Assembly (NCBI RefSeq): GCF_963921235.1
Contig: NW_026948142.1
Location: 1-64,000 of the forward strand
Source: Mobula hypostoma
Taxonomy: Eukaryota
Reading direction: 5' to 3'
DNA length: 64,000 bases
In this document: positions 1 through 56,932 of the stretch, piece after piece
How the letters are laid out: each line of letters starts with the position of its first letter
How positions within the stretch are numbered: position 1 is the stretch's first letter
Position numbers and translations under genes: made by a program
Notes under the pieces: model-generated
The model's database searches: none
What the model was told of the DNA's origin: nothing
Seen by the model: only the letters and a program-made list of their open reading frames with translations

Positions 1-3000
1 CTGCAGGCTGTCCTGTGTTTTCACTGACTTCCTGCAGGCTGTCGTGTGTTTTCACTGAGTTCCTACAGACTGTCCTGTGTTTTCACTGAGTTCCTGCAGA
101 CTATCCTGTGTTTACACTGAGTTCCAGCAGAGTGTCCTGTGTTTACACTGAGTTCCAGCAGAGTGTCCTGTGTTTTCACTGAGTTCCTACAGGCTGTCCT
201 GTGTTTTCACTGCGTTCCTGCAGACTGTCCTCTGTTTTCACTGACTTCCTGCAGACTGTCCTGTGTTTTCACTGAGTTCCTGCAGACTGTACCGTGTTTT
301 CACTAACTTCCTACAGACTGTCCTGTGCTTTCACTGAGTTCCTACAGACTGTAGTATGTTTTCACTGAGTTCCTGCAGACTGTCCCGTGTTTTCACTGAG
401 TTCCTGCAGACTGTCACGTGTTTTCACTGAGTTCCTGCAGACTGTCCTGTGTTTTCACTGAGTTTCTGCAGACTGTCCCGTGTTTTCACTGAGTTCCTGC
501 AGACTGTCCCGTGTTTTCACTGAGTTCCTGCAGACTGTCCCGTGTTATCACTGAGTTCCTGCTGACTGTCCCGTGTTTTCACAGAATTCCTGCAGACTGT
601 CCTGTGTTTTCACTGAGTTCCTGGAGACTCTCCTGTGGTTACACTGAGTTCCTGCAGACTGTCCTGTGTTTTCACTGAGTTTCTGCAGACTGTCCCGTGT
701 TTTCACTGAGTTCCTGCAGACTGTCCCGTGTTTTCACTGAGTTCCTGCAGACTGTCCCGTGTTTTCACTGAGTTCCTGCAGACTGTCCTGTGTTTTCACT
801 GAGTTCCTGCAGACTGTACCGTGTTTTCACTAACTTCCTACAGACTGTCCTGTCTTTTCACAGAGTTCCTACAGACTGTAGTATGTTTTCACTGAGTGTC
901 TGCAGACTGACCCTTGTTTTCTCTGACTTCCTGCTTACTGTCCCGTGTTTTCACAGAGTTCCTGCAGACTGTCCCGTGTTTTCACTGAGTTCCTGCAGAC
1001 TGTAGTATGTTTTCACTGAGTTCCTGCAGACTGTCCCGTGTTTTCACTGAGTTCCTGCAGACTGTCCCGTGTTTTCACTGAGTTCCTGCAGACTGTCACG
1101 TGTTTTCACTGAGTTCCTGCTGACTGTCCTGTGTTTTCACTGAGTTCCTGCAGACTGTCCTCTGTTTTCACTGAGTTCCTGCACACTGTCCTGTGTTTTC
1201 ACTGAGTTCCTGCAGACTGTACCGTGTTTTCACTAACTTTCTACAGACTGTCCTGTCTTTTCACAGAGTTCCTACAGACTGTAGTATGTTTTCACTGAGT
1301 GTCTGCCGACTGACCCTTGTTTTCTCTGACTTCCTGCTGACTGTTCTGTGTTTTCACTGATCCTGCAGATTGTCATGTGTTTACACTGAGTTCCAGCAGA
1401 GTGGCCTGTGTTTACACTGAGTTCCAGCAGAGTGTCCTGTGTTTTCACTGAGTTCCTGCAGACTGTCCTGTGTTTTCACTGACTTCCTGCAGGCTGTCCT
1501 GTGTTTTCACTGACTTCCTGCAGGCTGTCGTGTGTTTTCACTGAGTTCCTACAGACTGTAGTATGTTTTCACTGAGTTCCTGCAGACTGTCCTGTGTTTA
1601 CACTGAGTTCCAGCAGAGTGGCCTGTGTTTACACTGAGTTCCAGCAGAGTGTCCTGTGTTTTCACTGAGTTCCTGCAGACTGTCCTGTGTTTTCACTGAG
1701 TTCCTGCAGACTGTCCTCTGTTTTCACTGACTTCCTGCAGACTGTCCTGTGTTTTCACTGAGTTCCTGCAGACTGTCACGTGTTTTCACTGAGTTCCTGC
1801 AGACTGTCCTGTGTTTTCACTGAGTTCCTGCAGACTGTCCTCTGTTTTCACTGAGTTCCTGCAGACTGTCCTGTGTTTTCACTGAGTTTCTGCAGACTGT
1901 CCCGTGTTTTCACTGAGTTCCCGCAGACTGTCCCGTGTTTTCACTGAGTTCCTGCAGACTGTCACGTGTTTTCACTGAGTTCCTGCTGACTGTCCCGTGT
2001 TTTCACTGAATTCCTGCAGACTGTCCTGTGCATTCACTGAGTTCCTACAGACTGTAGTATGTTTTCACTGAGTTCCTGCAGACTGTCCCGTGTTTTCACT
2101 GAGTTCCTGCAGACTGTCACGTGTTTTCACTGAGTTCCTGCTGACTGTCCCGTGTTTTCACTGAATTCCTGCAGACGGTCCTGTGTTTACACTCAGTTCC
2201 CGGAGACTCTCCTGTGGTTACACTGAGTTCCTGCAGACTGTCCTGTGTTTTCACTGAGTTTCTGCAGACTGTCCCGTGTTTTCACTGAGTTCCTGCAGAC
2301 TGTCCCGTGTTATCACTGAGTTCCTGCTGACTGTCCCGTGTTTTCACTGAGTTCCTGCTGACTGTCCTCTGTTTTCACTGAGTTCCTGCACACTGTCCTG
2401 TGTTTTCACTGAGTTCCTGCAGACTGTACCGTGTTTTCACTAACTTTCTACAGACTGTCCTGTCTTTTCACAGAGTTCCTACAGACTGTAGTATGTTTTC
2501 ACTGAGTGTCTGCCGACTGACCCTTGTTTTCTCTGACTTCCTGCTGACTGTTCTGTGTTTTCACTGATCCTGCAGATTGTCATGTGTTTACACTGAGTTC
2601 CAGCAGAGTGCCTGTGTTTACACTTGTTCCAGCAGAGTGTCCTGTGTTTTCACTGAGTTCCTGCAGACTGTCCTGTGTTTTCACTGACTTCCTGCAGGCT
2701 GTCCTGTGTTTTCACTGACTTCCTGCAGGCTGTCGTGTGTTTTCACTGAGTTCCTACAGACTGTCCCGTGTTTTCACTGAGTTCCTGCAGACTACCCTGT
2801 GTTTACACTGAGTTCCAGCAGAGTGTCCTGTGTTTACACTGAGTTCCAGCAGAGTGTCCTGTGTTTTCACTGAGTTCCTACAGGCTGTCCTGTGTTTTCA
2901 CTGCGTTCCTGCAGACTGTCCTCTGTTTTCACTGACTTCCTGCAGACTGTCCTGTGTTTTCACTGAGTTCCTGCAGACTGTACCGTGTTTTCACTAACTT

Positions 3001-6000
3001 CCTACAGACTGTCCTGTGCTTTCACTGAGTTCCTACAGACTGTAGTATGTTTTCACTGAGTTCCTGCAGACTGTCCCGTGTTTTCACTGAGTTCCTGCAG
3101 ACTGTCACGTGTTTTCACTGAGTTCCTGCAGACTGTCCTGTGTTTTCACTGAGTTGCTGCAGACTGTACCGTGTTTTCACTAACTTCCTACAGACTGTCC
3201 TGTGCTTTCACTGAGTTCCTACAGACTGTAGTATGTTTTCACTGAGTGTCTGCCGACTGACCCTTGTTTTCTCTGACTTCCGGCTGACTGTTCTGTGTTT
3301 TCACTGAGTTCCTGCAGACTGTCCCGTGTTTTCACTGAGTTCCTGCAGACTGTCCTGTGTTTTCACTGAGTTCCTGCAGACTGTCCTGTGTTTTCACTGA
3401 GTTTCTGCAGACTGTCCCGTGTTTTCACTGAGTTCCTGCAGACTGTCCCGTGTTATCACTGAGTTCCTGCTGACTGTCCCGTGTTTTCACTGAGTTCCTG
3501 CAGACTGTCCTGTGTTTTCACTGAGTTCCTGCAGACTGTCCTGTGTTTTCACTGAGTTCCTGCAGACTGTACCGTGTTTTCACTAACTTTCTACAGACTG
3601 TCCTGTCTTTTCACAGAGTTCCTACAGACTGTAGTATGTTTTCACTGAGTGTCTGCCGACTGACCCTTGTTTTCTCTGACTTCCTGCTGACTGTTCTGTG
3701 TTTTCACTGATCCTGCAGATTGTCATGTGTTTACACTGAGTTCCAGCAGAGTGTCCTGTGTTTACACTGAGTTCCAGCAGAGTGTCCTGTGTTTTCACTG
3801 AGTTCCTGCAGACTGTCCTGTGTTTTCACTGACTTCCTGCAGACTGTCCTCTGTTTTTACTGACTTCCTGCAGACTGTCACGTGTTTTCACTGAGTTCCT
3901 ACAGACTGTCCCGTGTTTTCACTGAGTTCCTGCAGACTATCCTGTGTTTACACTGAGTTCCAGCAGAGTGTCCTGTGTTTACACTGAGTTCCAGCAGAGT
4001 GTCCTGTGTTTTCACTGAGTTCCTGCAGACTGTCCTGTGTTTTCACTGAGTTCCTGCAGACTGTCCTGTGTTTTCACTGAGTTCCTGCAGACTGTCCTGT
4101 GTTTTCACTGAGTTCCTGCAGACTGTCCCGTGTTTTCACTGACTTCCTGCAGACTGTCCCGTGTTTTCACTGAGTTCCTGCAGACTGTCACGTGTTTTCA
4201 CTGAGTTCCTGCAGACTGTCCTGTGTTTTCACTGAGTTTCTGCAGACTGTCCCGTGTTTTCACTGAGTTCCTGCAGACTGTCCCGTGTTTTCACTGAGTT
4301 CCTGCAGACTGTCCCGTGTTATCACTGAGTTCCTGCTGACTGTCCCGTGTTTTCACTGAGTTCCTGCTGACTGTCCTCTGTTTTCACTGAGTTACTGCAC
4401 ACTGTCCTGTGTTTACACTGAGTTCCTGCAGACTGTCCTGTGTTTTCACTGAGTTCCTGCAGACTGTCCTGTGTTTTCACTGAGTTCCTGCAGACTGTCC
4501 TGTGTTTTCACTGAGTTCCTGCAGACTGTCGTGTGCATTCACTGAGTTCCTACAGACTGTAGTATGTTTTCACTGAGTTCCTGCAGACTGTCCCGTGTTT
4601 TCACTGAGTTCCTGCAGACTGTCACGTGTTTTCACTGAGTTCCTGCTGACTGTCCCGTGTTTTCACTGAATTCCTGCAGACTGTCCTGTGTTTACACTGA
4701 GTTCCTGCAGACTCTCCTGTGGTTACACTGAGTTCCTGCAGACTGTCCTGTGTTTTCACTGAGTTTCTGCAGACTGTCCCGTGTTTTCACTGAGTTCCTG
4801 CAGACTGTCCCGTGTTATCACTGAGTTCCTGCTGACTGTCCCGTGTTTTCACTGAGTTCCTGCTGACTGTCCTCTGTTTTCACTGAGTTCCTGCACACTG
4901 TCCTGTGTTTTCACTGAGTTCCTGCAGACTGTACCGTGTTTTCACTAACTTTCTACAGACTGTCCTGTCTTTTCACAGAGTTCCTACAGACTGTAGTATG
5001 TTTTCACTGAGTGTCTGCCGACTGACCCTTGTTTTCTCTGACTTCCTGCTGACTGTTCTGTGTTTTCACTGATCCTGCAGATTGTCATGTGTTTACACTG
5101 AGTTCCAGCAGAGTGGCCTGTGTTTACACTGAGTTCCAGCAGAGTGTCCTGTGTTTTCACTGAGTTCCTGCAGACTGTCCTGTGTTTTCACTGACTTCCT
5201 GCAGGCTGTCCTGTGTTTTCACTGACTTCCTGCAGGCTGTCGTGTGTTTTCACTGAGTTCCTACAGACTGTCCCGTGTTTTCACTGAGTTCCTGCAGACT
5301 ATCCTGTGTTTACACTGAGTTCCAGCAGAGTGTCCTGTGTTTACACTGAGTTCCAGCAGAGTGTCCTGTGTTTTCACTGAGTTCCTACAGGCTGTCCTGT
5401 GTTTTCACTGCGTTCCTGCAGACTGTCCTCTGTTTTCACTGACTTCCTGCAGACTGTCCTGTGTTTTCACTGAGTTCCTGCAGACTGTACCGTGTTTTCA
5501 CTAACTTCCTACAGACTGTCCTGTGCTTTCACTGAGTTCCTACAGACTGTAGTATGTTTTCACTGAGTTCCTGCAGACTGTCCCGTGTTTTCACTGAGTT
5601 CCTGCAGACTGTCCCGTGTTTTCACTGAGTTCCTGCAGACTGTCCCGTGTTTTCACTGAGTTCCTGCAGACTGTCCCGTGTTTTCACTGAGTTCCTGCAG
5701 ACTGTCCCGTGTTATCACTGAGTTCCTGCTGACTGTCCCGTGTTTTCACAGAATTCCTGCAGACTGTCCTGTGTTTTCACTGAGTTCCTGGAGACTCTCC
5801 TGTGGTTACACTGAGTTCCTGCAGACTGTCCTGTGTTTTCACTGAGTTCCTGCAGACTGTCCCGTGTTTTCACTGAGTTCCTGCAGACTGTCCTGTGTTT
5901 TCACTGAGTTCCTGCAGACTGTCCTGTGTTTACACTGAGTTCCTGCAGACTGTCCCGTGTTTTCACTGAGTTCCTGCAGACTGTCCCGTGTTTTCACTGA

Positions 6001-9000
6001 GTTACTGGAGACTGTCCTGTGTTTACACTGAGTTCCTGCAGAGTGTCCTGTGTTTTCACTGAGTTCCTGCAGACTGTCCTGTGTTTTCACTGAGTTCCTG
6101 CAGACTATCCTGTGTTTTCACAGAGTTCCTGCAGACTGTCCTGTGTTTTCACTGAGTTCCTGCAGACTGTCCCGTGTTTTCACTGAGTTCCTGCAGACTG
6201 TCCCGTGTTTTCACTGAGTTCCTGCAGACTGTCCCGTGTTTTCACTGAGTTCCTGCTGACTGTCCTCTGTTTTCACTGAGTTCCTGCACACTGTCCTGTG
6301 TTTTCACTGAGTTCCTGCAGACTGTCGTGTGCATTCACTGAGTTCCTACAGACTGTAGTATGTTTTCACTGAGTTCCTGCAGACTGTAGTATGTTTTCAC
6401 TGAGTTCCTGCAGACTGTCCCGTGTTTTCACTGAGTTCCTGCAGACTGTCACGTGTTTTCACTGAGTTCCTGCAGACTGTCCTGTGTTTTCACTGAGTTC
6501 CTGCAGACTGTCCCGTGTTTTCACTGAGTTCCTGCAGACTGTCCCGTGTTATCACTGAGTTCCTGCTGACTGTCCCGTGTTTTCACTGAATTCCTGCAGA
6601 CTGTCCTGTGTTTTCACTGAGTTCCTGGAGACTCTCCTGTGGTTACACTGAGTTCCTGCAGACTGTCCTGTGTTTTCACTGAGTTTCTGCAGACTGTCCC
6701 GTGTTTTCACTGAGTTCCTGCAGACTGTCCCGTGTTTTCACTGAGTTCCTGCAGACTGTCCTGTGTTTTCACTGAGTTCCTGCAGACTGTCCCGTGTTTT
6801 CACTGAGTTCCTGCAGACTGTCCTGTGTTTTCACTGAGTTCCTGCAGACTGTCCTGTGTTTACACTGAGTTCCTTCAGACTGTCCTGTGTTTTCACTGAG
6901 TTCCTGCAGACTGTCCTCTGTTTTCACTGACTTCCTGCAGACTGTCCTGTGTTTTCACTGAGTTCCTGCAGACTGTCCTGTGTTTTCACTGAGTTCCCGC
7001 AGACTGTCCCGTGTTTTCACTGAGTTCCTGCAGACTGTCCCGTGTTTTCACTGAGTTCCTGCAGACTGTCCCGTGTTTTCACTGAGTTCCTGCTGACTGT
7101 CCTGTGTTTTCACTGAGTTCCTGCACACTGTCCTGTGTTTTCACTGAGTTCCTGCAGACTGTCCTGTGTTTTCACTGAGTTCCTGCAGACTGTCCTGTGT
7201 TTTCACTGAGTTCCTGCAGACTGTCCTGTGTTTTCACTGAGTTCCTGCAGACTGTCCTGTGTTTTCACTGAGTTCCTGCAGACTGTCCCGTGTTTTCACT
7301 GAGTTCCTGCAGACTGTCCCGTGTTTTCACTGAGTTCCTGCAGACTGTCCGGTGTTTTCACTGAGTTCCTGCAGACTGTCCTGTGTTTTCACTGAGTTCC
7401 TGCAGACTGTACCGTGTTTTCACTAACTTTCTACAGACTGTCCTGTCTTTTCACAGAGTTCCTACAGACTGTAGTATGTTTTCACTGAGTGTCTGCAGAC
7501 TGACCCTTGTTTTCTCTGACTTCCTGCTGACTGTTCTGTGTTTTCACTGATCCTGCAGATTGTCCTGTGTTTACACTGAGTTCCAGCAGAGTGTCCTGTG
7601 TTTTCACTGAGTTCCTGCAGACTGTCCCGTGTTTTCACTGAGTTCCTACAGACTGTCCTGTGCTTTCACTGAGTTCCAGCAGAGTGTCCTGTGTTTTCAC
7701 TGAGTTCCCGCAGACTGTCCCGTGTTTTCACTGAGTTCCTGCAGACTGTCCCGTGTTTTCACAGAGTTCCTGCAGACTGTCCCGTGTTTTCACAGAGTTC
7801 CTGCAGACTGTCCTGTGTTTTCACTGAGTTCCTGCAGACTGTCCTGTGTTTTCACTGAGTTCCTGCAGACTGTCCTGTGTTTTCACTGAGTTCCTGCAGA
7901 CTGTCCCGTGTTTTCACTGAGTTCCTGCAGACTGTCCTGTGTTTTCACTGAGTTCCTGCAGACTGTCCTGTGTTTTCACTGAGTTCCTGCAGACTGTCCC
8001 GTGTTTTCACTGAGTTCCTGCTGACTGTCCTCTGTTTTCACTGAGTTCCTGCACACTGTCCTGTGTTTACACTGAGTTCCTTCAGACTGTCCTGTGTTTT
8101 CACTGAGTTCCTGCAGACTGTCCTCTGTTTTCACTGAGTTCCTGCAGACTGTCCTGTGTTTTCACTGAGTTCCTGCAGACTGTCCTGTGTTTTCACTGAG
8201 TTCCTGCAGACTGTCACGTGTTTTCACTGAGTTCCTGCAGACTGTCCCGTGTTTTCACTGAGTTCCTGCAGACTGTCCCGTGTTTTCACAGAGTTCCTGC
8301 AGACTGTCCTGTGTTTTCACTGAGTTCCTGCAGCTGTCCTGTGTTTTCACTGAGTTCCTGCAGACTGTCTTGTGTTTTCACTGAGTCCCTGTTGACTGTC
8401 CTGTGGTTACACTGAGTTCCTGCAGACTGTCCTGTGTTTTCACTGAGTTCCTGCAGACTGTCCAGTGTTTTCACTGAGTTCCTGCAGACTGTCCCGTGTT
8501 TTCACTGAGTTCCTGCAGACTGTCCCGTGTTTTCACTGAGTTCCTGCACACTCTCCGGTGTTTTCACTGAGTTCCTGGAGACTGTCCTGTGTTTACACTG
8601 AGTTCCTGCAGACTGTACCGTGTTTTCAGTAACTTTCTACAGACTGTCCTGTGTTTTCACAGAGTTCCTACAGACTGTAGTATGTTTTCTCTGAGTGTCT
8701 GCAGACTGACCCTTGTTTTCTCTGACTTCCTGCTGACTGTTCTGTGTTTTCACTGATCCTGCAGATTGTCCTGTGTTTACACTGAGTTCCAGCAGAGTGT
8801 CCTGTGTTTTCACTGAGTTCCTGCAGGCTGTCCTGTGTTTTCATTGAGTTCCTGCAGACTGTCCTGTGTTTTCACTGAGTTGCTGCAGCTGTCCTGTGTT
8901 TTCACTGAGTTCCTGCAGACTGTCCTGTGTTTTCACTGAGTTCCTGCAGACTGTACCGTGTTTTCACTAACTTTCTACAGACTGTCCTGTCTTTTCACAG

Positions 9001-12000
9001 AGTTCCTACAGACTGTAGTATGCTTTCACTGAGTGTCTGCCGACTGACCCTTGTTTTCTCTGACTTCCTGCTAACTGTTCCGTGTTTTCACAGAGTTCCT
9101 GCAGACTGTCCCGTGTTTTCACTGAGTTCCTTCAGACTGTCCTCTGTTTTCACTGAGTTCCTGCAGACTGTCCTCTGTTTTTACTGACTTCCTGCAGACT
9201 GTCCTGTGTTTTCACTGAGTTCCTGCAGACTGTACCGTGTTTTCACTAACTTCCTACAGACTGTCCTGTGCTTTCACTGAGTTCCTACAGACTGTAGTAT
9301 GTTTTCACTGACTTCCTGCAGGCTGTCCTGTGTTTTCACTGAGTTCCTGCAGACTGTACCGTGTTTTCACTAACTTCCTACAGACTGTCCTGTGCTTTCA
9401 CTGAGTTCCTACAGACTGTAGTATGTTTTCACTGAGTTCCTGCAGACTGTCCCGTGTTTTCACTGAGTTCCTGCAGACTGTCCCGTGTTTTCACAGAGTT
9501 CCTGCAGACTGTCCCGTGTTATCACTGAGTTCCTGCTGACTGTCCCGTATTTTCACTGAATTCCTTCAGATTGTCCTGTGTTTTCACTGAGTTCCTGGAG
9601 ACTCCTGTGGTTACACTGAGTTCCTGTAGACTGTCCTGTGTTTTCACTGAGTTTCTGCAGACTGTCCCGTGTTTTCACTGAGTTGCTGCAGACTGTCCTG
9701 TGTTTACACTGAGTTCCTGCAGACTGTCCTGTGTTTTCACTGAGTTCCTGCAGACTGTCCCGTGTTTTCACTGAGTTCCTGCAGACTGTCCTGTGTTTTC
9801 ACTGAGTTTCTGCAGATTGTCCCGTGTTTTCACTGAGTTCCTGCTGACTGTCCTCTGTTTTCACTGAGTTCCTGCACACTGTCCTGTGTTTTCACTGAGT
9901 TCCTGCAGACTGTACCGTGTTTTCACTAACTTTCTACAGACTGTCCTGTCTTTTCACAGAGTTCCTACAGACTGTAGTATGTTTTCACTGAGTGTCTGCC
10001 GACTGACCCTTGTTTTCTCTGACTTCCTGCTGACTGTTCTGTGTTTTCACTGATCCTGCAGATTGTCCTGTGTTTACACTGAGTTCCTGCAGACTGTCCT
10101 GTGTTTTCACTGAGTTCCTGCAGACTGTCCCGTGTTTTCACTGAGTTCCTGCAGACTGTCACGTGTTTTCACTGAGTTCCTGCTGACTGTCCCGTGTTTT
10201 CACTGAATTCCTGCAGACTGTCCTGTGTTTTCACTGAGTTCCTGCAGACTGTCCTGTGTTTACACTGAGTTCCTGCAGACTGTCCTGTGTTTTCACTGAG
10301 TTCCTGCAGCTGTCCTGTGTTTTCACTGAGTTCCTGCAGACTGTCCTGTGTTTTCACTGAGTTCCTGCAGACTGTCCTGTGCTTTCACTGAGTTCCTACA
10401 GACTGTAGTATGTTTCAACCGAGTTCCTGCAGACTGTCCCGTGTTTTCACTGAGTTCCTGCAGACTGTCACGTGTTTTCACTGAGTTCCTGCTGACTGTC
10501 CCGTGTTTTCACTGAATTCCTGCAGACGGTCCTGTGTTTTCACTGAGTTCCCGGAGACTCTCCTGTGGTTACACTGAGTTCCTGCAGACTGTCCTGTGTT
10601 TTCACTGAGTTTCTGCAGACTGTCCCGTGTTTTCACTGAGTTCCTGCAGACTGTCCCGTGTTATCACTGAGTTCCTGCTGACTGTCCCGTGTTTTCACTG
10701 AGTTCCTGCTGACTGTCCTCTGTTTTCACTGAGTTCCTGCACACTGTCCTGTGTTTTCACTGAGTTCCTGCAGACTGTACCGTGTTTTCACTAACTTTCT
10801 ACAGACTGTCCTGTCTTTTCACAGAGTTCCTACAGACTGTAGTATGTTTTCACTGAGTGTCTGCCGACTGACCCTTGTTTTCTCTGACTTCCTGCTGACT
10901 GTTCTGTGTTTTCACTGACCCTGCAGATTGTCATGTGTTTACACTGAGTTCCAGCAGAGTGGCCTGTGTTTACACTGAGTTCCAGCAGAGTGTCCTGTGT
11001 TTTCACTGAGTTCCTGCAGACTGTCCTGTGTTTTCACTGACTTCCTGCAGGCTGTCCTGTGTTTTCACTGACTTCCTGCAGGCTGTCGTGTGTTTTCACT
11101 GAGTTCCTACAGACTGTAGTATGTTTTCACTGAGTTCCTGCAGACTATCCTGTGTTTACACTGAGTTCCAGCAGAGTGTCCTGTGTTTACACTGAGTTCC
11201 AGCAGAGTGTCCTGTGTTTTCACTGAGTTCCTGCAGGCTGTCCTGTGTTTTCACTGCGTTCCTGCAGACTGTCCTCTGTTTTCACTGACTTCCTGCAGAC
11301 TGTCCTGTGTTTTCACTGAGTTCCTGCAGACTGTACCGTGTTTTCACTAACTTCCTACAGACTGTCCTGTGCTTTCACTGAGTTCCTACAGACTGTAGTA
11401 TGTTTTCACTGAGTTCCTGCAGACTGTCCCGTGTTTTCACTGAGTTCCTGCAGACTGTCACGTGTTTTCACTGAGTTCCTGCAGACTGTCCTGTGTTTTC
11501 ACTGAGTTGCTGCAGACTGTCCCGTGTTTTCACTGAGTTCCTGCAGACTGTCCCGTGTTTTCACTGAGTTCCTGCAGACTGTCCCGTGTTTTCACTGAGT
11601 TCCTGCTGACTGTCCCGTGTTTTCACTGAATTCCTGCAGACTGTCCTGTGTTTTCACTGAGTTCCTGGAGACTGTCCTGTGGTTACACTGAGTTCCTGCA
11701 GACTGTCCTGTGTTTTCACTGAGTTTCTGCAGACTGTCCCGTGTTTTCACTGAGTTCCTGCAGACTGTCCTGTGTTTTCACTGAGTTCCTGCAGACTGTC
11801 CCGTGTTTTCACTGAGTTCCTGCAGACTGTCCTGTGTTTTCACTGAGTTCCTGCAGACTGTACCGTGTTTTCACTAACTTTCTACAGACTGTCCTGTCTT
11901 TTCACAGAGTTCCTACAGACTGTAGTATGTTTTCACTGAGTGTCTGCAGACTGTCCCGTGTTTTCACTGAGTTCCTGCAGACTGTCCCGTGTTTTCACTG

Positions 12001-15000
12001 AGTTCCTGCAGACTGTCCCGTGTTATCACTGAGTTCCTGCTGACTGTAGTATGTTTTCACTGAGTTCCTGCAGACTGTCCCGTGTTTTCACTGAGTTCCT
12101 GCAGACTGTCCCGTGTTTTCACTGAGTTCCTGCAGACTGTCCCGTGTTTTCACTGAGTTCCTGCAGACTGTCCCGTGTTTTCACTGAGTTCCTGCAGACT
12201 GTCCTCTGTTTTCACTGAGTTCCTGCAGACTGTCCTGTGTTTTCACTGAGTTCCTGCAGACTGTACCGTGTTTTCACTAACTTTCTACAGACTGTCCTGT
12301 CTTTTCACAGAGTTCCTACAGACTGTAGTATGTTTTCACTGAGTGTCTGCCGACTGACCCTTGTTTTCTCTGACTTCCTGCTGACTGTTCTGTGTTTTCA
12401 CTGATCCTGCAGATTGTCATGTGTTTACACTGAGTTCCAGCAGAGTGGCCTGTGTTTACACTGAGTTCCAGCAGAGTGTCCTGTGTTTTCACTGAGTTCC
12501 TGCAGACTGTCCTGTGTTTTCACTGACTTCCTGCAGACTGTCCTGTGTTTTCACTGACTTCCTGCAGGCTGTCGTGTGTTTTCACTGAGTTCCTGCAGAC
12601 TGTCCCGTGTTTTCACTGAGTTCCTGCAGACTGTCCTGTGTTTTCACTGAGTTCCTGCAGACTGTCCTGTGTTTACACTGAGTTCCAGCAGACTGTCCTG
12701 TGTTTTCACTGAGTTCCTGCAGACTGTCCTGTGTTTTCACTGAGTTCCTGCAGACTGTCCTGTGTTTTCACTGAGTTCCTGCAGACTGTCCTGTGTTTTC
12801 ACTGAGTTCCTGCAGACTGTCCCGTGTTTTCACTGAGTTCCTGCAGACTGTCCTGTGTTTTCACTGAGTTCCTGCAGACTGTCCCGTGTTTTCACTGAGT
12901 TCCTGCAGACTGTCCTGTGTTTTCACTGAGTTCCCGCAGACTGTCCCGTGTTTTCACTGAGTTCCTGCAGACTGTCCCGTGTTTTCACAGAGTTCCTGCA
13001 GACTGTCCCGTGTTTTCACTGAGTTCCTGCTGACTGTCCCGTGTTTTCACTGAATTCCTGCAGACTGTCCTGTGTTTTCACTGAGTTCCTGCTGACTGTC
13101 CTGTGTTTTCACTGAGTTCCTGCAGACTGTCCTGTGTTTTCACTGAGTTCCTGCAGACTGTCCTGTGTTTTCACTGAGTTCCTGCAGACTGTCCTGTGTT
13201 TTCACTGAGTTCCTGCAGACTGTCCTGTGTTTTCACTGAGTTCCTGCAGACTGTCCTCTGTTTTCACTGACTTCCTGCAGACTGTCCTGTGTTTTCACTG
13301 ACTTCCTGCAGACTGTCACGTGTTTTCACTGAGTTCCTGCTGACTGTCCCGTGTTTTCACTGAATTCCTGCAGACGGTCCTGTGTTTACACTCAGTTCCC
13401 GGAGACTCTCCTGTGGTTACACTGAGTTCCTGCAGAATGTCCTGTGTTTTCACTGAGTTTCTGCAGACTGTCCCGTGTTTTCACTGAGTTCCTGCAGACT
13501 GTCCCGTGTTATCACTGAGTTCCTGCTGACTGTCCCGTGTTTTCACTGAGTTCCTGCTGACTGTCCTCTGTTTTCACTGAGTTACTGCACACTGTCCTGT
13601 GTTTTCACTGAGTTCCTGCAGACTGTACCGTGTTTTCACTAACTTTCTACAGACTGTCCTGTCTTTTCACAGAGTTCCTACAGACTGTAGTATGTTTTCA
13701 CTGAGTGTCTGCCGACTGACCCTTGTTTTCTCTGACTTCCTGCTGACTGTTCTGTGTTTTCACTGATCCTGCAGATTGTCATGTGCTTACACTGAGTTCC
13801 AGCAGAGCGGCCTGTGTTTACACTGAGTTCCAGCAGAGTGTCCTGTGTTTTCACTGAGTTCCTGCAGACTGTCCTGTGTTTTCACTGACTTCCTGCAGGC
13901 TGTCCTGTGTTTTCACTGACTTCCTGCAGGCTGTCGTGTGTTTTCACTGAGTTCCTACAGACTGTAGTATGTTTTCACTGAGTTCCTGCAGACTATCCTG
14001 TGTTTACACTGACTTCCAGCAGAGTGTCCTGTGTTTACACTGAGTTCCAGCAGAGTGTCCTGTGTTTTCACTGAGTTCCTGCAGGCTGTCCTGTGTTTTC
14101 ACTGCGTTCCTGCAGACTGTCCTCTGTTTTCACTGACTTCCTGCAGACTGTCCTGTGTTTTCACTGAGTTCCTGCAGACTGTACCGTGTTTTCACTAACT
14201 TCCTAAAGACTGTCCTGTGCTTTCACTGAGTTCCTACAGACTGTAGTATGTTTTCACTGAGTTCCTGCAGACTGTCCCGTGTTTTCACTGAGTTCCTGCA
14301 GACTGTCACGTGTTTTCACTGAGTTCCTGCAGACTGTCCTGTGTTTTCACTGAGTTTCTGCAGACTCTCCCGTGTTTTCACTGAGTTCCTGCAGACTGTC
14401 CCGTGTTATCACTGAGTTCCTGCAGACTGTCCCGTGTTATCACTGAGTTCCTGCTGACTGTCCCGTGTTTTCACTGAATTCCTGCAGACTGTCCTGTGTT
14501 TTCACTGAGTTCCTGGAGACTCTCCTGTGGTTACACTGAGTTCCTGCAGACTGTCCTGTGTTTTCACTGAGTTCCTGCAGACTGTCCCGTGTTTTCACTG
14601 AATTCCTGCAGACTGTCCTGTGTTTTCACTGAGTTACTGGAGACTCTCCTGTGGTTACACTGAGTTCCTGCAGACTGTCCCGTGTTTTCACTGAGTTTCT
14701 GCAGACTGTCCCCTGTTTTCACTGAGTTACTGGAGACTCTCTGAGTTCCTGCAGAGTGTCCTGTGTTTTCACTGACTTCCTGCAGACTGTACCGTGTTTT
14801 CACTAACTTCCTACAGACTGTCCTGTGTTTTCACTGAGTTCCTGCAGACTGTCCTGTGTTTTCACTGAGTTCCTGCAGACTGTCCTGTGTTTTCACTGAG
14901 TTCCTGCAGACTGTCCTGTGTTTTCACTGAGTTCCTGCAGACTGTCCCGTGTTTTCACTGAGTTCCTGCAGACTGTCCCGTGTTTTCACTGAGTTCCTGC

Positions 15001-30000: not shown

Positions 30001-33000
30001 CGTAGACTCTCCTGTGGTTACACTGAGTTCCTGCAGACTGTCCTGTGTTTTCACTGAGTTTCTGCAGACTGTCCCGTGTTTTCACTGAGTTCCTGCAGAC
30101 TGTCCCGTGTTATCACTGAGTTCCTGCTGACTGTCCCGTGTTTTCACTGAGTTCCTGCTGACTGTCCTCTGTTTTCACTGAGTTCCTGCACACTGTCCTG
30201 TGTTTTCACTGAGTTCCTGCAGACTGTACCGTGTTTTCACTAACTTTCTACAGACTGTCCTGTCTTTTCACAGAGTTCCTACAGACTGTAGTATGTTTTC
30301 ACTGAGTGTCTGCCGACTGACCCTTGTTTTCTCTGACTTCCTGCTGACTGTTCTGTGTTTTCACTGATCCTGCAGATTGTCATGTGTTTACACTGAGTTC
30401 CAGCAGAGTGGCCTGTGTTTACACTGAGTTCCAGCAGAGTGTCCTGTGTTTTCACTGAGTTCCTGCAGACTGTCCCGTGTTTTCACTGAGTTCCTGCAGA
30501 CTGTCCTCTGTTTTCACTGACTTCCTGCAGACTGTCCTGTGTTTTCACTGAGTTCCTGCAGACTGTACCGTGTTTTCACTAACTTCCTACAGACTGTCCT
30601 GTGCTTTCACTGAGTTCCTACAGACTGTAGTATGTTTTCACTGAGTTCCTGCTGACTGTCCCGTGTTTTCACTGAATTCCTGCAGACTGTCCTGTGTTTT
30701 CACTGAGTTTCTGCAGACTGTCCCGTGTTTTCACTGAGTTCCTGCAGACTGTCCCGTGTTTTCACTGAGTTCCTGCAGACTGTCCCGTGTTATCACTGAG
30801 TTCCTGCTGACTGTCCCGTGTTTTCACTGAATTCCTGCAGATTGTCCTGTGTTTTCACTGAGTTCCTGGAGACTCCTGTGGTTACACTGAGTTCCTGCAG
30901 ACTGTCCTGTGTTTTCACTGAGTTCCTGCAGACTGTCCTGTGTTTTCACTGAGTTCCTGCAGACTGTCCTGTGTTTTCACTGAGTTCCTGCAGACTGTCC
31001 TGTGTTTTCACTGAGTTCCTGCAGACTGTCCCGTGTTTTCACTGAGTTCCTGCAGACTGTCCTCTGTTTTCACTGAGTTCCTGCACACTGTCCTGTGTTT
31101 TCACTGAGTTCCTGCAGACTGTCCTGTGTTTTCACTGAGTTCCTGCAGCTGTCCTGTGTTTTCACTGAGTTCCTGCAGACTATCCTGTGTTTTCACAGAG
31201 TTCCTGCAGACTGTCCTGTGTTTTCACTGAGTTTCTGCAGACTGTCCCGTGTTTTCACTGAGTTCCTGCAGACTGTCCCGTGTTATCACTGATTTCCTGC
31301 TGACTGTCCCATGTTTTCACTGAGTTCCTGCTGACTGTCCTCTGTTTTCACTGAGTTCCTGCACACTGTCCTGTGTTTTCACTGAGTTCCTGCAGACTGT
31401 CTTGTGTTTCACTGAGTTCCTGTTGACTGTCCTGTGGTTACACTGAGTTCTGCAGACTGTCCGTGTTTTCACTGATTTCCTGCAGACTGTCCAGTGTTTT
31501 CACTGAGTTCCTGCAGACTGTCCCGTGTTTTCACTGAGTTCCTGCAGACTGTCCCGTGTTTTCACTGAGTTCCTGCACACTCTCCGGTGTTTTCACTGAG
31601 TTCCTGGAGACTGTCCTGTGTTTACACTGAGTTCCTGCAGACTGTACCGTGTTTTCAGTAACTTTCTACAGACTGTCCTGTGTTTTCACAGAGTTCCTAC
31701 AGACTGTAGTATGTTTTCTCTGAGTGTCTGCAGACTGACCCTTGTTTTCTCTGACTTCCTGCTGACTGTTCTGTGTTTTCACTGATCCTGCAGATTGTCC
31801 TGTGTTTACACTGAGTTCCAGCAGAGTGTCCTGTGTTTTCACTGAGTTCCTGCAGGCTGTCCTGTGTTTTCATTGAGTTCCTGCAGACTGTCCTGTGTTT
31901 TCACTGAGTTGCTGCAGCTGTCCTGTGTTTTCACTGAGTTCCTGCAGACTGTCCTGTGTTTTCACTGAGTTCCTGCAGACTGTACCGTGTTTTCACTAAC
32001 TTTCTACAGACTGTCCTGTCTTTTCACAGAGTTCCTACAGACTGTAGTATGCTTTCACTGAGTGTCTGCCGACTGACCCTTCTTTTCTCTGACTTCCTGC
32101 TAACTGTTCCGTGTTTTCACAGAGTTCCTGCAGACTGTCCCGTGTTTTCACTGAGTTCCTTCAGACTGTCCTCTGTTTTCACTGAGTTCCTGCAGACTGT
32201 CCTCTGTTTTTACTGACTTCCTGCAGACTGTCCTGTGTTTTCACTGAGTTCCTGCAGACTGTACCGTGTTTTCACTAACTTCCTACAGACTGTCCTGTGC
32301 TTTCACTGAGTTCCTACAGACTGTAGTATGTTTTCACTGAGTTCCTGCAGACTGTCCCGTGTTTTCACTGAGTTCCTGCAGACTGTCCCGTGTTTTCACA
32401 GAGTTCCTGCAGACTGTCCCGTGTTATCACTGAGTTCCTGCTGACTGTCCCGTGTTTTCACAGAATTCCTGCAGACTGTCCTGTGTTTTCACTGAGTTCC
32501 TGGAGACTCTCCTGTGGTTACACTGAGTTCCTGCAGACTGTCCTGTGTTTTCACTGAGTTTCTGCAGACTGTCCCGTGTTTTCACTGAGTTCCTGCAGAC
32601 TGTCCCGTGTTATCACTGAGTTCCTGCAGACTGTCCCGTGTTATCACTGAGTTCCTGCTGACTGTCCTGTGTTTTCACTGAGTTCCTGCAGACTGTACCG
32701 TGTTTTCACTAACTTTCTACAGACTGTCCTGTCTTTTCACAGAGTTCCTACAGACTGTAGTATGCTTTCACTGAGTGTCTGCCGACTGACCCTTCTTTTC
32801 TCTGACTTCCTGCTAACTGTTCCGTGTTTTCACAGAGTTCCTGCAGACTGTCCCGTGTTTTCACTGAGTTCCTTCAGACTGTCCTGTGTTTTCACTGAGT
32901 TCCTGCAGACTGTCCTCTGTTTTTACTGACTTCCTGCAGACTGTCCTGTGTTTTCACTGAGTTCCTGCAGACTGTACCGTGTTTTCACTAACTTCCTACA

Positions 33001-36000
33001 GACTGTCCTGTGCTTTCACTGAGTTCCTACAGACTGTAGTATGTTTTCACTGAGTTCCTGCAGACTGTCCCGTGTTTTCACTGAGTTCCTGCAGACTGTC
33101 CCGTGTTTTCACAGAGTTCCTGCAGACTGTCCCGTGTTATCACTGAGTTCCTGCTGACTGTCCCGTGTTTTCACAGAATTCCTGCAGACTGTCCTGTGTT
33201 TTCACTGAGTTCCTGGAGACTCTCCTGTGGTTACACTGAGTTCCTGCAGACTGTCCTGTGTTTTCACTGAGTTTCTGCAGACTGTCCCGTGTTTTCACTG
33301 AGTTCCTGCAGACTGTCCCGTGTTATCACTGAGTTCCTGCAGACTGTCCCGTGTTATCACTGAGTTCCTGCTGACTGTCCCGTGTTTTCACTGAATTCCT
33401 GCAGATTGTCCCGTGTTTTCACTGAGTTCCTGCTGACTCCTGTGGTTACACTGAGTTCCTGCAGACTGTCCCGTGTTTTCACTGAGTTCCTGCAGCTGTC
33501 CTGTGTTTTCACTGAGTTCCTGCAGACTGTCCTGTGTTTTCACTGAGTTCCTGCAGACTGTCCTGTGCTTTCACTGAGTTCCTACAGACTGTAGTATGTT
33601 TCAACCGAGTTCCTGCAGACTGTCCCGTGTTTTCACTGAGTTCCTGCAGACTGTCACGTGTTTTCACTGAGTTCCTGCTGACTGTCCCGTGTTTTCACTG
33701 AATTCCTGCAGACGGTCCTGTGTTTACACTCAGTTCCCGGAGACTCTCCTGTGGTTACACTGAGTTCCTGCAGACTGTCCTGTGTTTTCACTGAGTTTCT
33801 GCAGACTGTCCCGTATTTTCACTGAGTTCCTGCAGACTGTCCCGTGTTATCACTGAGTTCCTGCTGACTGTCCCATGTTTTCACTGAGTTCCTGCTGACT
33901 GTCCTCTGTTTTCACTGAGTTCCTGCACACTGTCCTGTGTTTTCACTGAGTTCCTGCAGACTGTACCGTGTTTTCACTAACTTTCTACAGACTGTCCTGT
34001 CTTTTCACAGAGTTCCTACAGACTGTAGTATGTTTTCACTGAGTGTCTGCCGACTGACCCTTGTTTTCTCTGACTTCCTGCTGACTGTTCTGTGTTTTCA
34101 CTGATCCTGCAGATTGTCATGTGTTTACACTGAGTTCCAGCAGAGTGTTCTGTGTTTACACTGAGTTCCAGCAGAGTGTCCTGTGTTTTCACTGAGTTCC
34201 TGCAGACTGTCCTGTGTTTTCACTGAGTTCCTGCAGACTGTCCTGTGTTTTCACTGAGTTCCTGCAGACTGTCGTGTGTTTTCACTGAGTTCCTACAGAC
34301 TGTAGTATGTTTTCACTGAGTTCCTGCAGACTATCCTGTGTTTACACTGAGTTCCAGCAGAGTGTCCTGTGTTTACACTGAGTTCCTGCAGACTGTCCTG
34401 TGTTTTCACTGAGTTTCTGCAGACTGTCCCGTGTTTTCACTGAGTTCCTGCAGACTGTCCCGTGTTTTCACAGAGTTCCTGCAGACTGTCCCGTGTTATC
34501 ACTGAGTTCCTGCTGACTGTCTCGTGTTTTCACTGACTTCCTGCAGGCTTTCCTGTGTTTTCACTGACTCCTGCAGGATGTCGTGTGGTTACACTGAGTT
34601 CCTGCAGACTGTCCCGTGTTTTCACTGAGTTCCTGCAGCTGTCCTGTGTTTTCACTGAGTTCCTGCAGACTGTCCTGTGTTTTCACTGAGTTCCTGCAGA
34701 CTGTCCTGTGCTTTCACGGAGTTCCTACCGACTGTAGTATGTTTCAACCGAGTTCCTGCAGACTGTCCCGTGTTTTCACTGAGTTCCTGCAGACTGTCAC
34801 GTGTTTTCACTGTGTTCCTGCTGACTGTCCCGTGTTTTCACTGAATTCCTGCAGACGGTCCTGTGTTTACACTCAGTTCCCGGAGACTCTCCTGTGGTTA
34901 CACCGAGTTCCTGCAGACTGTCCTGTGTTTTCACTGAGTTTCTGCAGACTGTCCCGTATTTTCACTGAGTTCCTGCAGACTGTCCCGTGTTATCACTGAG
35001 TTCCTGCTGACTGTCCCGTGTTTTCTCTGAGTTCCTGCTGACTGTCCTCTGTTTTCACTGAGTTCCTGCACACTGTCCTGTGTTTTCACTGAGTTCCTGC
35101 AGACTGTACCGTGTTTTCACTAACTTTCTACAGACTGTCCTGTCTTTTCACAGAGTTCCTACAGACTGTAGTATGTTTTCACTGAGTGTCTGCCGACTGA
35201 CCCTTGTTTTCTCTGACTTCCTGCTGACTGTTCTGTGTTTTCACTGATCCTGCAGATTGTCCTGTGTTTACACTGAGTTCCAGCAGAGTGTCCTGTGTTT
35301 ACACTGAGTTCCAGCAGAGTGTCCCGTGTTTTCACTGAGTTCCTGCAGACTGTCCTGTGTTTTCACTGACTTCCTGCAGGCTGTCCTGTGTTTTCACTGA
35401 CTTCCTGCAGGCTGTCGTGTGTTTTCACTGAGTTCCTACAGACTGTAGTATGTTTTCACTGAGTTCCTGCAGACTATCCTGTGTTTACACTGAGTTCCAG
35501 CAGAGTGTCCTGTGTTTACACTGAGTTCCAGCAGAGTGTCCTGTGTTTTCACTGAGTTCCTACAGGCTGTCCTGTGTTTTCACTGCGTTCCTGCAGACTG
35601 TCCTCTGTTTTCACTGACTTCCTGCAGACTGTCCTGTGTTTTCACTGAGTTCCTGCAGACTGTACCGTGTTTTCACTAACTTCCTACAGACTGTCCTGTG
35701 CTTTCACTGAGTTCCTACAGACTGTAGTATGTTTTCACTGAGTTCCTGCAGACTGTCCCGTGTTTTCACTGAGTTCCTGCAGACTGTCACGTGTTTTCAC
35801 TGAGTTCCTGCAGACTGTCCTGTGTTTTCACTGAGTTTCTGCAGACTGTCCCGTGTTTTCACTGAGTTCCTGCAGACTGTCCCGTGTTTTCACTGAGTTC
35901 CTGCAGACTGTCCCGTGTTATCACTGAGTTCCTGCTGACTGTCCCGTGTTTTCACTGAATTCCTTCAGATTGTCCTGTGTTTTCACTGAGTTCCTGGAGA

Positions 36001-39000
36001 CTCCTGTGGTTACACTGAGTTCCTGTTGACTGTCCTGTGTTTTCACTGAGTTTCTGCAGACTGTCCCGTGTTTTCACTGAATTCCTGCAGACTGTCCTGT
36101 GTTTTCACTGAGTTACTGGAGACTCTCCTGTGGTTACACTGAGTTCCTGCAGACTGTCCCGTGTTTTCACTGAGTTTCTGCAGACTGTCCCCTGTTTTCA
36201 CTGAGTTACTGGAGACTCTCCTGTGGTTACACTGAGTTCCTGCAGAGTGTCCTGTGTTTTCACTGAGTTCCTGCAGACTGTCCTGTGTTTTCACTGAGTT
36301 CCTGCAGACTGTCCTGTGTTTTCACTGAGTTCCTGCAGACTGTCCTGTGTTTTCACTGAGTTCCTGCAGACTGTCCCGTGTTTTCACTGAGTTCCTGCAG
36401 ACTGTCCGGTGTTTTCACTGAGTTCCTGCAGACTGTCCTGTGTTTTCACTGAGTTCCTGCAGACTGTACCGTGTTTTCACTAACTTTCTACAGACTGTCC
36501 TGTGTTTTCACAGAGTTCCTACAGACTGTAGTATGTTTTCTCTGAGTGTCTGCAGACTGACCCTTGTTTTCTCTGACTTCCTGCTGACTGTTCTGTGTTT
36601 TCACTGATCCTGCAGATTGTCCTGTGTTTGCACTGATTTCGAGCAGAGTATGCTGTGTTTACACTGAGTTCCAGCAGAGTGTCCTGTGTTTTCACTGAGT
36701 TCCTGCAGACTGTCCTGTGTTTTCACTGAGTTCCTGCAGACTGTCCTGTGTTTTCACTGACTTCCTGCAGGCTGTCGTGTGTTTTCACTGAGTTCCTACA
36801 GACTGTAGTATGTTTTTCACTGAGTTCCTGCAGACTATCCTGTGTTTACACTGAGTTCCAGCAGAGTGTCCTGTGTTTTCACTGAGTTCCTGCAGACTGT
36901 CCTGTGTTTTCACTGAGTTCCTGCAGACTGTCCTGTGTTTTCACTGACTTCCTGCAGGCAGTCGTGTGTTTAGACTGAGTTCCTGCAGACTGTCCCGTGC
37001 TTTCACTGAGTTCCTGCAGACTGTCCTGTGTTTTCACTGAGTTCCTGCAGACTGTCCTGTGTTTTCACTGAGTTGCTGCAGCTGTCCTGTGTTTTCACTG
37101 AGTTCCTGCAGACTGTCCTGTGTTTTCACTCAGTTCCTGCAGACTGTCCCGTGTTTTCACTGAGTTCCTGCAGACTGTCCCGTGTTTTCACTGAGTTCCT
37201 GCTGACTGTCCTCTGTTTTCACTGAGTTCCTGCACACTGTCCTGTGTTTTCACTGAGTTCCTGCAGACTGTACCGTGTTTTCACTAACTTTCTACAGACT
37301 GTCCTGTCTTTTCACAGAGTTCCTACAGACTGTAGTATGTTTTCTCTGAGTGTCTGCAGACTGACCCTTGTTTTCTCTGACTTCCTGCTGACTGTTCTGT
37401 GTTTTCACTGATCCTGCAGATTGTCCTGTGTTTACACTGAGTTCCAGCAGAGTGTCCTGTGTTTTCACTGAGTTCCTGCAGGCTGTCCTGTGTTTTCACT
37501 GAGTTCCTGCAGACTGTCCTGTGTTTTCACTGAGTTCCTGCAGACTGTCCTGTGTTTTCACTGAGTTCCTGCAGACTGTCCTGTGTTTTCACTGAGTTCC
37601 TGCAGACTGTCCTGTGTTTTCACTGAGTTCCTGCAGACTGTCCCGTGTTTTCACTGAGTTCCTGCAGACTGTCCCGTGTTTTCACTGACTTCCTGCAGAC
37701 TGTCCCGTGTTTTCACTGAGTTCCTGCAGACTGTCCTGTGTTTTCACTGAGTTCCTGCAGACTGTCCTGTGTTTTCACTGAGTTCCTGCAGACTGTCCTG
37801 TGTTTTCACTGACTTCCTGCAGGCTGTCCTGTGTTTTCACTGACTTCCTGCAGGCTGTCGTGTGTTTTCACTGAGTTCCTGCAGACTGTCCTGTGTTTTC
37901 ACTGAGTTCCTGCAGACTGTCCTGTGTTTTCACTGAGTTCCTGCAGACTGTACCGTGTTTTCACTAACTTTCTACAGACTGTCCTGTCTTTTCACAGAGT
38001 TCCTACAGACTGTACTATGTTTTCACTGAGTGTCTGCAGACTGACCCTTGTTTTCTCTGATTTCCTGCTGACTGTTCTGTACTTTCACTGATCGTCAAGA
38101 CTGTCCTGTGTTTTCACTGAGTTCCTGTTGACTGTCCTGTGGTTACACTGAGTTCTGCAGACTGCCCGTGTTTTCACTGATTTCCTGCAGACTGTCCTGT
38201 GTTTTCACTGAGTTCCTGCAGACTGTCCCGTGTTTTCACTGAGTTCCTGCAGACTGTCCCGTGTTTTCACTGAGTTCCTGCACACTCTCCGGTGTTTTCA
38301 CTGAGTTCCTGGAGACTGTCCTGTGTTTACACTGAGTTCCTGCAGACTGTACCGTGTTTTCACTAACTTTCTACAGACTGTCCTGTGTTTTCACAGAGTT
38401 CCTACAGACTGTAGTATGTTTTCACTGAGTGTCTGCAGACTGACCCTTGTTTTCTCTGACTTCCTGCTGACTGTTCTGTGTTTTCACTGATCCTGCAGAT
38501 TGTCCTGTGTTTACACTGAGTTCCAGCAGAGTGTCCTGTGTTTTCACTGAGTTCCTGCAGGCTGTCCTGTGTTTTCACTGAGTTCCTGCAGACTGTCCTG
38601 TGTTTTCACTGAGTTCCTGCAGCTGTCCTGTGTTTTCACTGAGTTCCTGCAGACTGTCCTGTGTTTTCACTGACTTCCTGCAGGCTGTCCTGTGTTTTCA
38701 CTGACTTCCTGCAGGCTGTCGTGTGTTTTCACTGAGTTCCTGCAGACTGTCCTGTGTTTTCACTGAGTTCCTGCAGACTGTACCGTGTTTTCACTAACTT
38801 TCTACAGACTGTCCTGTCTTTTCACAGAGTTCCTACAGACTGTAGTATGTTTTCTCTGAGTGTCTGCAGACTGACCCTTGTTTTCTCTGACTTCCTGCTG
38901 ACTGTTCTGTGTTTTCACTGATCCTGCAGATTGTCCTGTGTTTACACTGAGTTCCTGCAGAGTGTCCTGTGTTTTCACTGAGTTCCTGCAGACTGTCCTC

Positions 39001-39420
39001 TGTTTTCACTGAGTTTCTGCAGACTGTCCTGTGTTTTCACTGAGTTCCTGCAGACTGTCCTGTGTTTTCACTGAGTTCCTGCAGACTGTCCCATGTTTTC
39101 TCTGACTTCCTGCTGACTGTTCTGTGTTTTCCCTGTTCCTGCAGACTGTCCTGTGTTTTCACTGAGTTTCTGCAGACTGTCCTGTGTTTTCACTGAGTTC
39201 CAGCAGACTGTCCTGTGTTTTCACTGAGTTCCTGCAGACTGTCCCATGTTTTCTCTGACTTCCTGCTGACTGTTCTGTGTTTTCCCTGTTCCTGCAGACT
39301 GTCCTGTGTTTTCACTGAGTTTTTGCAGACTGCCCGGTGTTTTCACTGAGTTCCCACAACATCTTTTGTGTTGTTTAATGATTTCCTACAGACTGTTTTG
39401 TGTTTCGTTAGCAGTCTCCT
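1..39420 (+). repeat. 31-bp tandem satellite array, roughly 1,270 monomers in the window, open at the left edge
   Basis: CTGCAG(A/G)CTGT recurs at 1 and 32 and keeps a 31-bp period. Consensus CTGCAGACTGTCC(T/C)GTGTTTTCACTGAGTTC, PstI site in most monomers, single orientation throughout. Monomers degenerate over about 39,320-39,420. Confidence 0.99.
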
Positions 39421-39970: not shown

Positions 39971-40008
39971 CTACCTCTGAATCTGTTCTGCCTTACATGG
40001 GACACTGT
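39971..40008 (-). other. Candidate terminal exon (possible coding part) of an unidentified minus-strand transcript
   Basis: Minus-strand acceptor tttctttttttgttaag| at 40,009-40,010 in unique sequence. Phase-1 reading is (D)SVPCKAEQIQR*. No homology recognised. Confidence 0.25.
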
Positions 40009-40119
40009 CTTAACAAAAAAAGAAACCCATAATGACAGAGTCGCCAAGCTCCATACATGGCACCAGTAGTAGTGAGTGGAGTGATTCTCAACCAGAGATT
40101 GAATGGCCAGCCTGCTCTG

Positions 40120-42443: not shown

Positions 42444-42468
42444 CACTGCACAGACACCAGAAGCTCAC

Positions 42469-56884: not shown

Positions 56885-56932
56885 GGATCGGCACAGCATT
56901 GTGTACTGTGCTGTACTATTCTATGTTCTATG

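Follow-up and report, generated by a model that had tools for sequence, protein, structure and literature searches.

The 31-bp satellite that fills positions 1–39,405 of the window, the 64-kb stretch of DNA analysed here, probably arose from the terminal region of a Penelope-like element (PLE), 3′ of its hammerhead. From comparison of the sequences we give this origin, which is unproven, a probability of about 0.6. The array, the PLE, the likeness between the two and the absence of a ribozyme from the array can all be read directly from the window. An initial annotation of this DNA had already proposed the same parentage, and it stands as the best-supported source on the strength of profile comparisons and of the drift of the array edge, while simple alignments leave it borderline. 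With almost the same confidence, we regard the array as an old, ordinary satellite whose unit was taken from the last ~60 bases of the PLE terminal repeat, namely segment B and the optional tail described below.

Structure of the satellite array

Tandem Repeats Finder detects a single tandem array with a 31-bp period in the 64-kb window, and cyclic alignment resolves it into 1,276 units, of which 1,210 are exactly 31 nt long and 178 are distinct. The commonest unit is the monomer of the initial annotation, and the mean identity of the units to it is 92.7%; the profile is flat, with values of 0.91–0.95 in each 4-kb bin along the array. The homogenised body (1–39,345, forward strand) extends beyond the left end of the window and contains cassettes of variant units that recur irregularly. 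A dimeric or fixed higher-order period was rejected, the best lag (48 units) giving 0.884 against a mean of 0.873. No foreign insertion was found in the 39.4 kb. The stretch therefore shows what is expected of satellite DNA: one unit repeated head to tail over a long distance, homogenised units that share variant cassettes, and abundance in the genome together with sharing by relatives, many satellite contigs being present in organisms A, B and C.

The 31-nt unit places a stop in each frame, so that a coding reading of the array was rejected; the frames near the edge reach only 30–90 codons. Neither strand of the array gives a structured RNA signal or a stable fold (z of 0.71 and 0.31). The lack of the ribozyme core, as stated in the initial annotation, is borne out by a motif search, which finds no CTGANGA hammerhead core on either strand of the array, and there is no Rfam match in 36,000–64,000 at E up to 1.

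Penelope-like elements in the window

The element at 60,021–61,631 (forward strand) is a genuine PLE. It is 5′-truncated and carries an inverted terminal-repeat piece at its 5′ end (60,021–60,116; the inverted arm is 76 nt at 89%), a tail in the 30–40-bp range at one end and a target-site duplication of 12–13 bp (60,008/9–60,020 and 61,632/3–61,644). The frameshifted C-terminal part of its ORF (60,418–61,266, forward strand) contains a GIY-YIG endonuclease domain, with a match to PF01541 at E 2.2e-4 and 21.9 bits, just below the Pfam cut-off of 22.6. This ORF has 55 protein relatives, the best being from a shark (58% identical over 97%), and many of the full-length relatives carry the RT domain PF00078. 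The relatives also indicate that the host is a cartilaginous fish. The RT remnant in the window gave no Pfam match, and the arrangement of an RT followed by a GIY-YIG ORF is seen through these full-length relatives. A minimal hammerhead is predicted by motif search in the 3′ terminal repeat (61,534–61,571, forward strand), with GTT before the expected cut, whereas the copy at 59,780 has GTC; the motif is absent from the satellite. The GIY-YIG domain, terminal-repeat hammerhead, inverted 5′ piece, 30-nt tail and target-site duplication together reproduce the anatomy of Penelope/Poseidon-type PLEs, as far as the available text of the published descriptions goes (PMC4209133, PMC11167929, PMC8557442, PMC3846280). 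Tails of 30–40 bp are described in these elements (PMC8557442, PMC3846280), and in an anole PLE the tail sits between two reverse-transcription start sites (PMC11167929). The accessible parts of these papers cover the parent only and report no satellite of the post-hammerhead segment.

The terminal repeat 3′ of the hammerhead is composed of three pieces of ~30 nt: segment A (34 nt), segment B (32 nt) and an optional tail, or segment C (30 nt). Segment B at 60,051–60,082 (reverse strand) is the best single match to the monomer, with a local score of 30 that none of 300 shuffles equals against this target only. The tail at 60,021–60,050 (reverse strand), which lies inside the target-site duplication, is a second monomer-like region with a score of 22 (6/300 shuffles as good), and the two segments, B and the tail, repeat each other imperfectly (14/19). 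At the 3′ end of the element, segment B (61,600–61,631, forward strand) stands without a tail. Segment A was rejected as a source of the monomer, as 51/300 shuffles were as good. A 5-bp stem-loop within segment B is common to both PLE families in the window. The second family is represented by a short inverted terminal-repeat insertion inside a LINE (49,852–50,001, strand unassigned) with a 14-bp target-site duplication, and by a third locus at 59,687–59,790 (reverse strand) that has a predicted minimal hammerhead by motif search. The tail of the former (~49,968–50,001) scores 24 against the monomer, with 0/300 shuffles as good for this target only, and the latter is at chance level (311/1,000 shuffles). 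The window thus holds five PLE terminal-repeat copies of two families; the PLE comparison was made with these five individual ends. When tested whole, two of the five have ungapped likeness at chance level, and a third exceeds chance only in its tail.

All of the alignment counts in the initial annotation could be reproduced. The monomer matches the reverse complement of 60,052–60,082 at 22/31 positions and 61,600–61,630 at 21/31. The 3′ extension of the PLE terminal repeat matches the satellite consensus at 14/17, an edge unit at 15/17 (this unit begins at 39,386) and the G16 variant at 15/17, the last following from an observed unit variant; the extension at 49,983–50,002 matches at 15/20. 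As a separate observation, when the internal repeat of the tail is collapsed, 12 nt match the A10/G16 variant lineage, which comprises 76 linked units, and 13 nt match in one unit. In a control, a single 6-nt deletion creates a 12-nt match in 14/1,634 flank windows, so the tail-collapse match is suggestive only.

Monomer–PLE likeness compared with chance

The principal competitor to a PLE origin is that the likeness is due to chance and that the satellite has another or a lost source, short CTG-, CAG- and TG-rich sequences aligning at ~70% by composition and the edge being no more than decayed monomers. We consider this a realistic possibility, although a distinctly less probable one than descent from the PLE. 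It is supported by simple alignments. The ungapped match of 22/31 is the best in the 24.6-kb flank when both strands are considered, yet at least 22 matches are also reached somewhere in that flank by 29 of 200 dinucleotide-shuffled monomers. In a gapped alignment of the trimer, 15/200 shuffles are as good, and in a model with one long gap 16/216 are. In the long-gap alignment, bases 1–10 of B are linked across a gap of 37 nt with the end of the tail, which gives 23/26 matches with the monomer; one of these 23 falls in the target-site duplication, and inside the duplication limits the count is 22/25. Across the window, the three simple tests therefore give p values of 0.07–0.15. In a test restricted to the PLE repeat, a target picked after the match had been seen, 3/1,000 and 5/1,000 shuffles are as good. 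Shuffled monomers also tend toward these repeats by composition, their best match falling in PLE repeats in 28/300 and 14/216 cases.

Profile comparison weighs against chance. With a profile of the satellite trimer, the three best matches in the 24.6-kb flank are all PLE terminal repeats in the sense orientation, at 11.6 bits (E 0.0048), 3.5 bits (E 1.6) and 3.3 bits (E 1.9); the best E in the reversed flank is 1.4. Column-shuffled profiles reach 11.6 bits anywhere in the flank in 2/300 cases with dinucleotide and 3/300 with trinucleotide shuffling, a window-wide level of ~1%, and only 1/300 places all of its top three matches in PLE repeats. The shuffled-control check that had been proposed for this origin thus has a divided outcome, the ungapped match failing to rise above shuffles window-wide and the profile match doing so. 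In the reciprocal direction, a profile of the five PLE ends, with the edge left out, gives the consensus array 5.0 bits (1–2/600 shuffles), again with a target picked post hoc, and 13 of the 25 commonest satellite variants gave no match. Several scoring schemes were tried, and the best p value is to be discounted accordingly.

The runner-up in the flank, a non-PLE stretch at 42,409–42,466, matches almost equally well, scoring 33 compared with 35 for the PLE end, and this favours chance. As a positive control, we aligned the 33-bp minisatellite at 58,160 with its LINE source; the score of 45 is reached by 0/100 shuffles, and this case is clearly stronger than that of the satellite and the PLE. 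The minisatellite is also a precedent, within the same window, for a tandem repeat derived from a segment of a retroelement.

The edge of the array

The array ends in units that have diverged from the body. The second-last unit (39,346–39,377, forward strand) scores 21 against the satellite and 22 against PLE segment B. It has CA at unit positions 15–16, as in segment B and in 0/1,272 interior units; as a whole it is no more B-like than the consensus (22 versus 25), and 299/1,272 interior units score as well. The last recognisable unit (39,378–39,407, forward strand) agrees with the consensus at 24/31 positions and is spanned by an orthologous contig of organism C. Its global score is 31 against the satellite, compared with −5 and 5 against two PLE tails, so it is clearly satellite-type and not a PLE tail, a point in favour of chance. 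Past this unit, one or more further decayed units may be present at 39,408–39,453 (forward strand), where the signal is weak and 31/662 flank windows score as well; these weak signs argue against a clean element end.

Taken together, the last two units (39,346–39,407) align end to end with B plus the tail at a score of 41, the best in the flank, which is reached by 0/200 shuffles and by 10/1,272 interior windows. The pair shares 46/63 positions with a satellite dimer and 44/63 with the PLE end. When dimers were decayed at random to the same distance, the observed PLE score was reached in 0–1 of 2,000 simulations. With the edge as read, and with array-derived or C-to-T-biased spectra, 0/1,500 simulations reached it; with an inferred A/C ancestor 1–3/1,500 did so, and with the four listed letters of organism C 9–10/1,500. 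The drift of the edge keeps its direction whichever mutation spectrum is assumed (uniform, transition-biased or array-derived), and the edge keeps no likeness to the non-PLE runner-up (18 versus 33), both of which speak against chance. The pair has drifted from the consensus toward the PLE end but is satellite-like unit by unit, and the most suitable reading of the edge is one of old monomers in which some PLE-like bases persist, not of an intact element end.

Comparison with other species

We compared the region 39,300–39,900 across runs, taking in four of the 24 runs and leaving out the small-share organisms D–K. In run X1, which is possibly from the same source as the window, one contig spans the junction of array and flank without difference. 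Satellite contigs are many in organisms A, B and C, with summed depths over the unit of 47,328, 24,117 and 8,626, respectively, which are not copy numbers; the corresponding flank depths are 6.1, 2.4 and 18.6. The flank differs at 11/426 bases in B and at 28/399 in C (7% diverged). Run X9, which is RNA by guess only, has satellite contigs and one flank piece and carries no weight for or against transcription. Pattern scans for further PLE ends or satellite gave no match in viral contigs with either pattern, and six metagenome loci were dropped as chance, as they had no PLE context on either side of the match. Protein-based locus scans found none in viral contigs, and of 116 pattern matches in prokaryote genomes none was confirmed.

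The orthologous contig of organism C covers 39,358–39,432 with 10 differences, four of which are listed, and continues upstream into a short simple repeat that resembles the LINE tail near 46,570. Organism C has the satellite base at 39,388 and at 39,397, the latter being C and not the T of the window. Part of the 15/17 edge match in the initial annotation is therefore later decay, and the base at 39,397 adds to the case for chance.

Two other contigs bear on the second-last unit. First, a single-depth contig of organism C is, among the records listed, at least 80% identical only on 39,344–39,378 and stops where B ends. Its upstream loose end, compared by eye with segment A, agrees in register at 10/14 positions with each of three copies in the window (binomial 3e-4), where the two loose ends are taken as one contig from depth columns. 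The contig seems to be a PLE end that has decayed and that is at least 80% like the second-last unit. This relic was chosen genome-wide by its likeness and is thus not independent of the 70% match. Second, record 8 of organism A has, among the records listed, satellite bases at unit positions 10–11 and edge bases at 14–17, a reading that rests on the absence of listed differences and on per-run change counts. It may represent an intermediate between the satellite and the edge.

These contigs also bear on a second alternative, in which the satellite has another origin and a decayed PLE end lies next to its edge or has recombined with it through the 9–10 shared bases, only the second-last unit being PLE-derived. 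The B-type bases of that unit, absent from all 1,272 interior units, would be explained in this way, as would the fact that the PLE-like relic of organism C falls exactly on it. However, the profile match of the interior units would be left unexplained, the unit that follows is satellite-type, and in record 8 of organism A these B-type bases occur within satellite sequence. We therefore consider recombination at the edge improbable.

The least probable of the alternatives is that the satellite is PLE-derived and still linked to the element, its transcripts serving as decoys for PLE proteins or as antisense or small-RNA guides, or the array as an endonuclease target: the matching region is the reverse-transcription start, described as needed by the endonuclease in other PLEs in the accessible part of PMC11167929, and antisense 28-mers pair slightly better than shuffles (1–6/60 as good), but only 3 bp (−1.1 kcal/mol) of the 5-bp PLE stem-loop (−5.2 to −6.0 kcal/mol) are left in the satellite, the best duplex with PLE RNA reaches −30.7 kcal/mol, whereas perfect complementarity gives −64.5 and pairing with its own sense strand −57.4, exact matches extend to 14 nt at most, in a single unit, and to 9–11 nt for the other three copies, the satellite strands do not fold stably, and the 39.4 kb hold no PLE insertion, though homogenisation could remove insertions. 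The suggestion in the initial annotation that satellite transcripts might interact with PLE RNA or machinery consequently finds no positive support, given the lost stem-loop, the weak antisense pairing and the lack of a PLE copy in 39 kb.

Origin of the satellite

Descent from the PLE end, the reading that we prefer, may be pictured as follows. Segment B and the tail already form an imperfect repeat, so that in a genome rich in such ends a PLE end would be prone to slip or mis-pair at the ~30-nt spacing of these near-repeats. Either event would then have produced a short tandem of units that resemble B in their 5′ part and the tail in their 3′ part. The recurring variant cassettes suggest that unequal exchange amplified and homogenised this tandem, which would have erased ~30% of the likeness. 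The edge units may have escaped homogenisation and kept older, more PLE-like bases, and amplification and homogenisation would both predate the separation from organism C. At present, the array is most likely inert toward the PLE, as structural or neutral heterochromatic DNA.

A bolder form of this origin is that repeated re-initiation at the two reverse-transcription start sites of the PLE, with their spacing of ~30 nt, generated the 31-bp unit, and that the product became a major satellite across several ray species, possibly a centromeric one. We regard this as a long shot. If true, it would tie the length of a satellite unit to the priming mechanism of a retroelement, and cartilaginous fishes would gain a candidate centromere repeat of retroelement origin.

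Satellites derived from mobile elements are in print, as the parts of three sources available here describe (PMC10702118, PMC12692304, bioRxiv 10.64898/2026.07.22.740005), and we compared the array with two of the closest systems. First, in the squamate SINE-derived satellites (sSats), as presented in the available text of PMC10702118, an internal piece of an abundant retroelement has given rise to long homogenised arrays, as it probably has here, and the terminal unit keeps its likeness to the parent, as the edge here may do. Unlike in the sSats, the parent here is a PLE end, the likeness is ~70% and parentage is probable and not evident; homology of the unit to the parent segment stands at ~1% window-wide by profile and at 7–15% by simple alignment. 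The terminal unit of an sSat array continues into the parent to its end, whereas here no clean run from the terminal unit to the element end is seen: the edge pair is colinear with B plus the tail, yet the last unit is satellite-type. Second, the non-LTR retrozymes, in the accessible text of bioRxiv 10.64898/2026.07.22.740005, are also tandem repeats traced to PLE pseudo-LTRs through local amplification of the terminus, and they show that PLE ends seed tandem arrays. Each retrozyme unit has a type I hammerhead and is 51–972 bp long, in up to 300 repeats in the survey reported there. The satellite unit, in contrast, is 31 bp, has no hammerhead core and occurs in more than 1,270 copies in a row. 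Retrozyme identity was rejected for want of a hammerhead, the array having no CTGANGA core and 36,000–64,000 no Rfam match.

In the portion of PMC12692304 available, Penelope elements are listed among the sources of satellites, the primary cases being known here via this review only. No description of the 31-bp family was found in the accessible literature, while supplementary or database repeat libraries may contain it. The available text of mobulid and other ray genome papers yielded no mention of Penelope and no named satellite.

The mechanism belongs to a known class and nothing points to a function, which makes the finding only modestly surprising. If the PLE origin holds, it would extend the known path from PLE ends to tandem DNA by a unit that is very short and free of a ribozyme. 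It would also represent a much later stage than the retrozymes, with more than 1,270 units in one block and a presence common to at least three species, and the origin would remain legible at the array edges despite homogenisation of the body. The 31-bp family is also usable as a cytogenetic probe, in a group on whose satellites the literature searched says little.

Monomer lineages and the edge of the array

Within the homogenized body of the 31-bp satellite array (1-39,345), two variants, A at unit position 10 and G at position 16, are tightly linked: G16 is present in 76 of the 79 units that carry A10. This linkage marks a separate monomer lineage within the array. A 50-bp period of two copies also occurs inside the array at 14,691-14,788, and it arises because the unit at 14,722 is truncated to 19 nt.

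At the right edge, the array was compared with contigs of two other species, organisms B and C. The orthologous contig of organism C carries, upstream of window position 39,358, a simple repeat resembling a LINE tail in place of the satellite, which suggests that, in the lineage of organism C, a LINE inserted at the edge of the array. The adjoining unique flank (39,430-40,250), in which no gene was identified, is retained in organism B with 2.6% divergence and in organism C with 7%.

Element-derived sequences in the flank

Two features belong to the second Penelope-like element (PLE) family. The first, within a LINE copy, is an insertion of ~150 bp (49,852-50,001) that consists solely of a pair of inverted PLE terminal pieces, of which one has the tail (the optional ~30-nt 3′ extension of the terminal repeat), and is accompanied by a 14-bp target-site duplication. 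The second is a PLE 3′ end on the minus strand (59,687-59,980), ~40 bases away from the first-family insertion (60,021-61,631); it contains a perfect 40-bp duplication (59,894-59,970) and a minimal hammerhead that appears intact. The motif search for CTGANGA…GAAA returned two more matches outside the PLE copies, at 62,820 and 49,158 (minus strand), and these may have occurred by chance.

At least six decayed, putatively CR1-like LINE copies crowd the flank at 40,250-57,330 in both orientations. Two further tandem repeats lie beyond them. One is AT-rich (59,125-59,355), with 3.2 copies of a 72-bp unit that are 86-89% alike. The other, a minisatellite of 3.9 copies of 33 bp (58,160-58,286), derives from a 3′ segment of the common LINE of the window, matching the copies at 57,103 and 41,999. 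This minisatellite, which served as the positive control, is a clear small example of tandem formation from a piece of an element.
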